IMG/VR virus record: IMGVR_UViG_2872169409_000001 | From: a virus | Lineage: Duplodnaviria; Heunggongvirae; Uroviricota; Caudoviricetes | Strand: one strand, 5' to 3' | DNA length: 40,324 nt | Made by a program: the position numbers | Shown: positions 34,301-37,300 of the stretch, piece by piece | Layout: every line of letters begins with the position of its first letter | Position numbering within the stretch: position 1 is the first letter of the stretch

Positions 34301-37300
34301 ATCAATGGTGCCATTGGTCAGAATCTTGGCAATGATACTCTCCGTAAATATCAGCAGGCCAATGCCGTCTACGCTGACGAAGCGGCGAAACTAAAGAATA
34401 CCAGGCTGAAGAATGTTCTCATGAAAGGCGACCTGACACCGGAAGTTGTCAACAACATGCTATTCAGCAAGAACAAATCGGAAATTAAGACGCTGTATAA
34501 CTCAGTTGGTCGTGTTGGCAGGGCGCAAATGCGCAATGGCATCATTGGAAAGGCGATGGAGAAATCTGGCGGATCCCCTGACCAGTTCCTTCGACAGCTT
34601 AACATCCTGCAAAACCAGACTGGCATCACATTTAAGGGGCAGGACGCTGCTTATCTGAAAGGATTGAAAAACTACCTGCAATCCACGCAGCAGGCTGCAA
34701 AAGCGGCAGTAACAACACCAACAGGGCAGCAAACCATCCCGTTCATTATCGGATATGGGACAGCAATGAACCCTGCGACAACTGGCGCAGCGGTAAGCTA
34801 CGGACTTCTTACTCGCGCATATGAGAGCGAGCCATTCAGAAATGCAATGCTCCGAATGGCAAACACCCCACGCGGATCAACAGCCTTTGAGAAAGCCATG
34901 CAGCAAGCGCAAAAAGCGATTAATGCACTGACGCAGGGTGCTAAGTCTGATGCGTTGTCAGAATAGCTTCGCAAACACCAGGAACGTGCAAAAACCAAAT
35001 ATGTAGAATGCAATATTCATCATATCTCTTTGCATAAATCCTCCGTAATGGATGGTTAGTTGCTGTCTTTTTTATATAGCTCCTTGAGCGTATCAAAGAC
35101 AATTTTCTTAACCATATCAGATTGTTGTTCTGCTATACGCTCTGCATCGTCAATGTAAACTGATGCAGAGTTTTGTTTATCCAGTGATTCTTCAATCGCT
35201 GCAATTATCTCTGAGTTCAGAGACCTGTTATTCATCTTCGCACGCTGCTTAATTTTCGCGTGGAGTTCATGCGGAAGTCTCAAGTGAAACTGCGCCTCGT
35301 CGTATTTGCTGTACATCCTTGATGCCTCACCAGTTGGGTGGAATGGCATCGTAATCTACTGGATAAATACTCAATAGTACCATTTCGGTATGCAATCGCA
35401 TCATGGTTGCATCATATCATTCGTCTGGAGCAATGAAATGTCAGATATCACCGCAAATGTTGTGGTCAGCATGCCTTCGCAACTCTTCACTATGGCTCGT
35501 TCTTTTAAAGCCGTAGCCAATGGCAAAATTTATATCGGTAAAATTGACACTGACCCGGTAAATCCTGAAAACCAGATTCAGGTTTATGTAGAGAATGAAG
35601 ACGGATCTCACGTCCCTGTTTCTCAGCCAATTGTTATCAATGCTGCCGGATATCCTGTGTACAACGGGCAGATTGCCAAATTTGTAACTGAGCAAGGCCA
35701 TTCAATGGCTGTATATGATGCGTATGGTTCGCAGCAGTTCTATTTTCAGAATGTGCTGAAGTACGACCCTGATCAGTTCGGTCCGGATTTAATTGAGCAA
35801 CTAGCTCAATCCGGTAAGTATTCGCAGGATAACACCAAAGGCGATGCCATGATTGGCGTCAAGCAGCCTTTACCAAAAGCAGTTTTAAGAACTCAGCATG
35901 ACAAAAATAAAGAAGCAATAAGTATCCTGGATTTTGGTGTTATTGATGATGGTGTGACAGATAATTACCAGGCAATACAAAATGCAATAGATGCCGTTGC
36001 TTCACTACCCTCCGGCGGGGAGCTGTTTATCCCTGCGAGCAACCAAGCGGTGGGGTATATTGTTGGATCCACTTTGCTTATTCCTGGCGGTGTTAACATC
36101 AGAGGGGTTGGTAAGGCATCGCAACTCCGAGCAAAAAGCGGACTTACAGGATCTGTGTTAAGGCTGTCTTATGATTCAGACACTATCGGCCGTTATCTGA
36201 GAAATATACGAGTAACTGGTAATAACACCTGCAATGGTATTGACACAAACATTACAGCAGAAGACTCTGTCATCAGACAGGTTTATGGCTGGGTATTTGA
36301 TAATGTAATGGTGAATGAAGTTGAAACCGCTTATTTAATGCAAGGGCTCTGGCACTCAAAATTTATAGCATGTCAGGCTGGAACCTGTAGAGTCGGTCTT
36401 CACTTTTTAGGCCAGTGCGTAAGTGTTAGTGTCAGCTCCTGCCATTTCAGCAGAGGAAATTATTCTGCTGATGAAAGCTTTGGCATCAGGATTCAGCCTC
36501 AAACGTATGCGTGGTCGTCAGAGGCAGTTAGGTCAGAAGCAATAATTTTAGACAGTGAGACCATGTGCATTGGTTTTAAAAATGCCGTCTATGTTCATGA
36601 TTGCCTTGATTTGCATATGGAACAACTGGATTTAGATTATTGCGGCTCAACAGGCGTGGTTATAGAGAATGTAAACGGAGGATTTTCTTTCTCAAACTCA
36701 TGGATAGCAGCAGATGCCGATGGCACTGAACAATTTACGGGGATATATTTTAGAACGCCGACCTCAACGCAGTCACATAAAATTGTCAGTGGTGTTCATA
36801 TCAACACTGCAAACAAAAACACGGCTGCAAACAATCAAAGTATAGCGATAGAACAGTCGGCGATCTTCGTCTTTGTAAGTGGTTGTACGTTAACTGGTGA
36901 TGAATGGGCTGTAAATATTGTCGACATCAATGAATGTGTTTCTTTCGATAAGTGCATATTCAATAAGCCTCTACGCTATCTTCGTAGCGGTGGCGTGTCA
37001 GTTACTGACTGTTATTTGGCTGGCATTACCGAGGTGCAGAAACCGGAAGGCAGATACAATACGTATCGTGGCTGTTCAGGCGTACCGTCTGTAAATGGGA
37101 TCATTAATGTCCCAGTTGCGGTAGGTGCCACAAGCGGATCTGCAGCTATACCGAACCCGGGGAACCTGACATACAGAGTAAGAAGCCTTTTTGGTGACCC
37201 TGCATCAAGTGGTGACAAGGTTAGTGTTTCCGGGGTGACAATTAATGTTACTCGCCCAAGCCCAGTAGGAGTCGCGCTGCCTTCAATGGTTGAGTATCTG

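Follow-up and report, generated by a model that had tools for sequence, protein, structure and literature searches.

What does a Mnt repressor do in a prophage that carries no antirepressor for it to control? The question is raised by a small minus-strand gene in the IMG/VR virus record IMGVR_UViG_2872169409_000001 (Caudoviricetes), whose 40,324 nucleotides, referred to here as the window, make up almost the whole of a P22-like (Lederbergvirus) prophage. In phage P22 the reference order of the region is 16 - sieA - orf59a - mnt - arc - sar - ant - 9, and a sequence-only reading of the window had started from this layout, correctly, to propose that only a Mnt-like ribbon-helix-helix (RHH) repressor is left here, divergent from the tailspike gene across a 121-bp intergenic region and accompanied by neither arc nor ant. 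These elements of the reading all hold. The answer that appears rather probable is that the gene encodes a functional Mnt-family repressor of a distinct specificity class, carried in a minimal and self-contained "mnt-only ant moron", expressed by the prophage and probably autoregulated.

The mnt-like gene occupies positions 35056-35316 of the minus strand and encodes 86 amino acids, with an N-terminal RHH DNA-binding domain followed by a C-terminal Mnt tetramerisation helix. Calling of open reading frames (ORFs) in the window gave a longer minus-strand frame, 35056-35349 (97 codons), between the genes for the last ejection protein and the tailspike, and its product matches Pfam PF03869 (Arc, E 3e-14) for the Arc-like RHH domain and PF11423 (Repressor_Mnt, E 2e-13) for the tetramerisation helix, the oligomeric state being predicted from sequence. 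Searches against PDB sequences matched the P22 Mnt structure 1MNT (E 1e-18, residues 6-79 aligned) and the Mnt tetramerisation domain 1QEY (E 2e-8, residues 56-84), and on the basis of the Pfam and PDB matches together the protein is considered a full-length, true Mnt homologue. Its identity is 47% to P22 Mnt and 94-95% to the IME10 and Sf101 proteins, and its recognition beta-strand reads QFHLRLP. The correct start is the ATG at 35316 (MYSKYDE..., 86 amino acids), as the sequence-only reading implied, since this is the form annotated by PGAP in Escherichia coli genomes, the 33-nt in-frame 5' extension shows 1-nt insertions or deletions among homologues, and the upstream ATG at 35347-35349 shares bases with the -10 hexamer predicted for mnt. 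Exactly 121 bp (35317-35437) then separate the two start codons, the tailspike ATG lying at 35438.

The gene belongs to a compact unit. Local alignment with phage Sf6 stops at 35036 and resumes at 35391, with 38 unrelated bp between these points in Sf6, and the mnt cassette is therefore delimited as a 354-bp unit (35037-35390, no strand assigned), present here and absent from Sf6. It holds the mnt gene, its own leftward promoter (homologous to P22 Pmnt) and one palindrome just upstream of the -35 hexamer, and nothing else, and its boundary coincides with the operator edge. The 121 intergenic bp align base for base with the Pmnt/Pant/Omnt region of P22, to which they are homologous, and the predicted Mnt operator is the palindrome GTACCATTTCGGTAT at 35377-35391 (no strand assigned; consensus RTACC-N5-GGTAY), exactly at the position of P22 Omnt in the alignment. 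The motif TACC-N5-GGTA occurs once in the window, where 0.17 occurrences are expected, and no second operator was found in the prophage, the single match with three mismatches, at 21225, being within chance expectation. The operator is centred 54 bp ahead of the tailspike ATG and about 43 bp ahead of the point where the mnt transcript is predicted to begin, that is near -43, compared with near -45 in P22 and in the JEP4 type.

The predicted mnt promoter, assigned by homology with P22, has its -10 (TACGAT, 35348-35353, minus strand) and its -35 (TTGAGT, 35369-35374, minus strand) at the positions of the TATCAT and TTGAGA of Pmnt, with a spacer of 15 nt here and 17 nt in JEP4-type relatives. The TTACGATGC block around the -10 is invariant in all 14 diverse homologues aligned. 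By the same homology the transcript would start near 35341, giving a predicted 5' untranslated leader at 35317-35341 (minus strand), a block that is kept among homologues and is taken as non-coding because of its 1-nt insertions or deletions; a Shine-Dalgarno sequence, GAGG, can be read at 35325-35328, 8 nt ahead of the ATG. Conservation is continuous from the operator through ATTG (-35), TTACGATGCC (-10) and GGTGAGG (Shine-Dalgarno) to the ATG, and it drops on the tailspike side. Since the conserved palindrome adjoins the conserved promoter block, control of mnt by its own product, one of the two roles put forward by the sequence-only reading, is plausible, and Mnt is predicted to bind at 35377-35391.

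In the same leader, a small inverted repeat, CACC-N5-GGTG (35329-35341 in the minus-strand mRNA), overlaps the Shine-Dalgarno region, with equivalent repeats at the same place in P22 (CACT-N7-AGTG) and ST64T (CACTT-N4-AAGTG); it could be a conserved hairpin maintained through compensatory changes.

The operator core is kept across at least six genera, Escherichia, Klebsiella, Rahnella, Serratia and Buttiauxella among them, and it is present in nearly all the loci that were retrieved by protein similarity alone, with no use of the operator pattern; the evidence for conservation comes from these loci only. Buttiauxella (GTACCATTTTGGTAC) and one E. coli virus contig have a perfect 6+6 palindrome. 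In a Citrobacter locus (L097; L numbers denote loci of this analysis) an early stop in mnt occurs together with a mutated operator core, and it is the sole locus with such an early stop. Two other repeats were set aside. A generic inverted-repeat search returned only a repeat inside the coding region, and ATGCAATC-N7-GGTTGCAT at 35390-35412 was rejected as an operator because it lies in the tailspike leader that is also found in Sf6, a phage without mnt, and folds no better than shuffled sequence: the corresponding imperfect hairpin has a z score of -0.11 here, compared with -3.1 in Sf6 and -3.6 in ST64T.

The assignment of the palindrome to Mnt is strengthened by comparison among relatives, in which the palindrome covaries with the DNA-reading beta-strand across four classes. 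Positions of this strand contact bases in both Mnt and Arc. The strand HFNFRM is paired with GGTCCAC-G-GTGGACC in P22, epsilon34, Pluralibacter and Pectobacterium, where arc is the next gene in all four and ant is confirmed in P22 and epsilon34, and QFNFRM is paired with ATATCAC-G-GTGATAT in Phlomobacter, also with arc. The two remaining classes are orphans: QFNLRL with AGACCAC-N-GTGGTCT in ST64T, ST160 and Gally, and QFHLRL with RTACC-N5-GGTAY (class III) in this window, IME10, Sf101, JEP4 and VSe13.

A tblastn search for arc and ant gave no match in the 40-kb window; the queries were Arc, Ant, SieA and orf59a of P22 together with proteins encoded beside mnt in related phages, namely Rha and KilA of JEP4 and the antirepressor of VSe13. 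Pfam and PHROGs scans gave no antirepressor-type domain in 29 early-region ORFs, several of which have no known function and might encode an antirepressor of an unfamiliar type. The 121-bp gap is too short for arc. Comparison with immI of P22 leaves intergenic DNA homologous to Pmnt, Pant and Omnt, with arc, sar and ant missing, and the window has no ant under Mnt control. The same holds for the class as a whole: none of the approximately 190 loci with an intact class-III mnt that are long enough to judge, from at least six genera, has an intact arc-ant. Among 120 IMG/VR loci retrieved with the pattern CAAT-N-GTACC-N-TTT-N-GGTA, all the enterobacterial ones carry mnt and a tailspike gene, and an intact arc or ant after the operator was found in none of about 105 that could be judged. 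One of them (L228) has class-III mnt and operator, followed, in the stretch about 50-390 nt beyond the operator, by the 3' end of a P22-type ant (its last 110 codons, residues 191-300, 93% identity) and then by the tailspike gene. This fragment is a deletion scar, and arc-ant was therefore lost at least once in the class-III lineage.

The arrangement is not special to this prophage; it is the normal state of this class of Mnt. Besides the approximately 190 loci just mentioned, the cassette is found in 280 of 5426 complete E. coli genomes (about 5%), always beside a tailspike gene of some type and annotated by PGAP as "Arc family DNA-binding protein" (WP_000287053.1 and relatives), and in phages IME10 and Sf101, where gene and intergenic DNA are 94-98% identical and neither the operator nor the flanking genes differ; mnt is unannotated in IME10 and labelled "partition protein ATPase" in Sf101 (L002 3007-3300). 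More distant members of the class, in JEP4, VSe13, Klebsiella aerogenes, Rahnella, Serratia, Citrobacter, Buttiauxella and metagenomes, occupy the equivalent position, and some of them have an HNH endonuclease gene or one or two small cargo genes close by. Comparable arrangements are on record for Salmonella phages (PMC2629481, PMC8022706): the region was named the "ant moron" by Villafane et al. 2008, who described ST64T, ST104 and Para1 as carrying mnt alone (PMC2629481), and Zaworski et al. 2020 described a mnt-only ant moron in phage L (PMC8022706).

Selection on the gene is strong. The ratio of nonsynonymous to synonymous substitution rates (dN/dS) over the DNA-binding domain, for the window gene against diverged class-III members, is 0.04-0.14, at a synonymous divergence near or beyond saturation, and mnt is intact in 197 of the 202 class-III copies. 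Between genera hardly any change is seen in the N-terminal domain, in contrast to the divergent C-terminal helix.

In the self-contained, autoregulated module proposed here, Mnt would form an RHH dimer of dimers and would be expressed in the lysogen from its own leftward promoter, as predicted by sequence comparison. The tetramer would bind the predicted operator at 35377-35391, and this binding would set the level of Mnt itself, by autoregulation of either sign; work by Sauer and Susskind is said to have found that Mnt stimulates Pmnt by shutting off Pant. The same binding would cover the start point of a weak rightward promoter at the old Pant position, so that transcription of the tailspike gene would come solely from the late operon, of which it is the last gene. 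Several points weigh against this account. The leftward promoter is poor by consensus rules, matching 4+4 of 12 positions, and its short 15-nt spacer contributes to this weakness; the binding, the transcripts and the expression of this Mnt are all predicted; and operator conservation within the 120 loci is circular, because the operator pattern itself was used to retrieve them. Finally, a repressor that acts only on itself has no obvious benefit and yet is strongly selected, and the explanation is therefore incomplete, with an outside target likely.

Such a target is the essence of the best-surviving rival, in which Mnt acts in trans to repress a gene elsewhere that has the same operator, either the antirepressor promoter of a superinfecting or co-resident phage, whose repression would protect lysogeny, or a host gene. 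Because the prophage contains neither an antirepressor nor a further operator, Mnt can be of benefit beyond regulating itself only through an outside target, and purifying selection on it is strong although its own promoter is the one place in the prophage where it has a site. P22 prophage Mnt represses the ant of incoming genomes, which counts in favour of such a role. In some relatives mnt also heads a prophage-expressed unit with co-directional cargo, such as a Rap1a-like gene. Antirepressor cross-talk between prophages is documented as well (PMC7380047). Against action in trans stands the failure to find a matching partner: in the viral loci searched, host genomes not having been scanned, nothing supported the presence in other phages of an antirepressor promoter bearing this operator. 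The class-III loci retain no more of ant than the C-terminal fragment described above; a search of IMG/VR for a complete immI of this specificity (TTGACA-N26-36-operator) gave 30 unrelated contigs, of low guanine-plus-cytosine content or environmental origin, without Mnt, Arc or Ant; and the ant-carrying P22-like phages of E. coli, CUS-3, Kapi1 and phiv205-1, carry repressors of different classes and lack TACC-N5-GGTA. Action in trans is regarded as possible, though unlikely. A broader proposal, that the Mnt lineage with QFHLRL and RTACC-N5-GGTAY has been permanently uncoupled from an antirepressor and is selected in at least six enterobacterial genera for a new job, is slightly easier to entertain but still doubtful. 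If true, the new job could be the repression of a gene of the host or of another prophage, or the gating of transcription into the tailspike gene, and the module would be a compact repressor-operator pair moving as a 354-bp unit.

Control of the tailspike gene, the other role put forward by the sequence-only reading, is less probable still. Here Mnt would repress rightward transcription from a promoter still working where Pant used to be, or would block late-operon polymerases at the operator, and in either form it would set the amount of tailspike or keep the tailspike gene silent in the lysogen. The proximity of the operator to the tailspike ATG, 54 bp away, speaks for this, as does a promoter-like sequence at the Pant position (35343-35371, plus strand; ATGGCA - 17 nt - AATACT), which matches the consensus at 8 of 12 positions, including both key -10 positions, and is predicted to start at the left edge of the operator. 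This site is nevertheless weak compared with P22 Pant (11/12), and its hexamers vary among class-III homologues, in which the leftward block and the operator are kept; they are not kept in JEP4-, Gally- and ST160-type homologues. The same tailspike leader, from 35391 onwards, exists in Sf6 without the cassette, a different, P22-type leader follows the operator in JEP4- and ST64T-type loci, and in about ten related loci operator and tailspike gene are separated by an inserted HNH endonuclease gene. Regulation of the tailspike by Mnt is thus unlikely as a conserved function, given the Sf6 leader without mnt, the HNH insertions and the weak, unconserved rightward hexamers. A leftward CTGACA-17-AATGAT found over the tailspike start in the consensus promoter scan was treated as chance because it is not conserved in JEP4-type homologues.

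The idea that mnt is merely a remaining piece, a decaying, non-functional vestige of an immI region from which arc and ant have gone, has some grounds: a remnant was considered for phage L by Zaworski et al. 2020 (PMC8022706), deletion scars exist, as in the locus that retains the end of ant, and the hexamers equivalent to Pant have degenerated. The low dN/dS at saturated synonymous divergence, the predominance of intact copies and a DNA-binding domain that is nearly invariant across genera, next to a divergent C-terminal helix, rule against decay, and the operator is conserved together with the protein. The remnant explanation is largely refuted by this selection analysis and retains very little probability.

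A role in a toxin-antitoxin pair, as its antitoxin, or in plasmid-type partition, as implied by the name "partition protein ATPase" given to the family in RefSeq and PHROGs and by weak Pfam matches to HicB and FitA-like RHH proteins, is refuted by gene context and domain content and has next to no probability, since the neighbours are the ejection protein and tailspike genes with no toxin-like or ParA-like gene adjacent, and the 86-amino-acid protein has RHH and Mnt domains only, no ATPase motif, and by far its best matches to Mnt itself. This label on Mnt homologues is widespread in both databases (phrog_795), and on RHH proteins of 83-97 amino acids it is a propagated annotation error.

Returning to the autoregulated mnt-only moron as the preferred explanation, its relation to described systems can be specified. 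The protein resembles P22 Mnt in its RHH domain and tetramerisation helix, in its 47% identity, and in its place in the genome, between the gene-16 homologue and the tailspike gene and oriented against the late operon; the locus resembles immI in its homologous promoter region and in the palindrome at the Omnt position. It differs from P22 in lacking arc, sar and ant, in an operator that directly abuts the tailspike leader, in its strand (QFHLRL instead of HFNFRM) and palindrome (RTACC-N5-GGTAY instead of GGTCCAC-G-GTGGACC), and in a degenerate rightward promoter (8/12, compared with 11/12). The mnt-only ant morons of ST64T, ST104 and L, and also of ST160, SE1 and Gally, are closer, with mnt as the sole immI gene divergent from the tailspike gene, and the window shares with the ST64T/L type an intact palindrome at the Omnt position and a tailspike gene directly after the operator. 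That type, whose function is given as unknown in PMC2629481 and PMC8022706, differs in having QFNLRL and AGACCAC-N-GTGGTCT, only 49-59% protein identity to the window Mnt, a P22-type tailspike leader and usually one extra small gene, whereas the window has no extra gene and represents the smallest form. From the IME10, Sf101 and E. coli prophage cassettes it shows essentially no difference. In combining a small RHH protein with a short palindrome, predicted here to be bound, at or beside the promoter of that protein's gene, the cassette also recalls Arc, CopG and omega; unlike Mnt here, which has no partner, these control downstream operon partners (ant, repB, and partition or toxin genes).

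The layout is therefore common and already described in kind, and it is no new kind of system; what is new here is the operator prediction, the covariation of protein and site across classes, the exact cassette boundaries and the evidence of selection. Antirepressor-less mnt genes have been an acknowledged loose end in the genomics of P22-like phages since 2008, and the module, present in about one in 20 complete E. coli genomes, is not decaying, its protein and predicted site switching specificity together. The choice between remnant and new function is thereby narrowed to one protein and one 15-bp site, and the three or four natural pairs of Mnt and operator specificity could be used in studies of DNA recognition by beta-strands or as orthogonal repressor parts.

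On either side of the cassette lie genes of the late operon. On the left is the ejection (DNA transfer) protein gene with an SLT domain (32573-34966, plus strand), at the position of P22 gene 16 and convergent with mnt, 89 bp separating the two stop codons; the only ORF of at least 30 amino acids in these 89 bp encodes 53 amino acids (34941-35102) and overlaps both flanking gene ends. Outside the cassette on the other side is the tailspike leader common to Sf6 (35391-35437, plus strand), with a Shine-Dalgarno sequence, GGAG, at 35427-35430, followed by the divergent, Sf6-type tailspike gene (35438-37309, plus strand; 623 amino acids), with Head_binding and Tailspike_C domains in Pfam. Its first approximately 260 nt match the tailspike genes of Sf6 and relatives, with 94% identity to Sf6.

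Insertions around mnt in the related loci show some regularity of their own. The HNH endonuclease gene between operator and tailspike gene (L012 3948-4457; L131 and L135 3341-3850; about ten IMG/VR loci, e.g. L020, L023 and L155) sits directly behind the 15 nt that open the tailspike reading frame (ATGTCAGATATCACC, then the insertion) and looks like a mobile, homing-type insertion at a fixed site. A cargo gene in the same direction as mnt, overlapping it stop to start, encodes a Rap1a-like immunity protein or a 106-amino-acid ORF (L131, L132 4258-4620; L135 4261-4581), so that mnt heads a small prophage-expressed operon there, like mnt-orf59a in P22. CUS-3 (L259 2453-2982) carries two different mnt-like genes in tandem, one of the P22 class (HFNFRM) and one for a distinct RHH protein (PQVNLRLP); downstream of the pair come a small Arc-like ORF, left unannotated, and ant. 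The hairpin of the P22 gene-9 leader, AAAATTCACCGTAGCCA(C/T)GCT..., is present in two copies in P22 (L005 1095-1225, minus strand), flanking a small insert; it directly abuts the Mnt operator in JEP4-type (L006) and ST64T-type (L137) orphan loci and matches the annotated "boundary sequence" of CUS-3, and it may be a recombination point for moron exchange. Its fold in ST64T is far better than that of shuffled sequence (z -3.6).

The remainder of the window is that of a P22-like prophage. The early-left genes encode Ead/Ea22, Abc2, an exonuclease, SSB, an Erf-like protein and N, and further genes encode a LexA-type repressor, Cro, CII, O, a primase-helicase, nin proteins, Q and lysis proteins; the morphogenetic operon ends with the ejection proteins and the Sf6-type tailspike, after which come oac and an IntS-type integrase gene. 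The oac gene, for an O-antigen acetyltransferase (Acyl_transf_3; 37343-38344, minus strand), has an in-frame TGA at 37763-37765 (...FSIPL, stop, LYPLRGLAFFFG...), and the ORFs 37763-38344 and 37343-37753 are therefore one pseudogene. An IS3-family insertion sequence occupies the left end, at about 97-1674 on the minus strand, with an HTH_Tnp_1 transposase at 1264-1674 and an rve integrase core at 401-1306. ARAGORN found no tRNA in the window. The sequence after the integrase gene (38500-39693) matches E. coli genomes only as far as 39832, where a tRNA-Arg is annotated in them, and a fragment of a fimbrial-subunit gene lies at 39977-40324; either a rearrangement or a junction of prophage and chromosome that includes a partial tRNA may account for the region 38500-40324.

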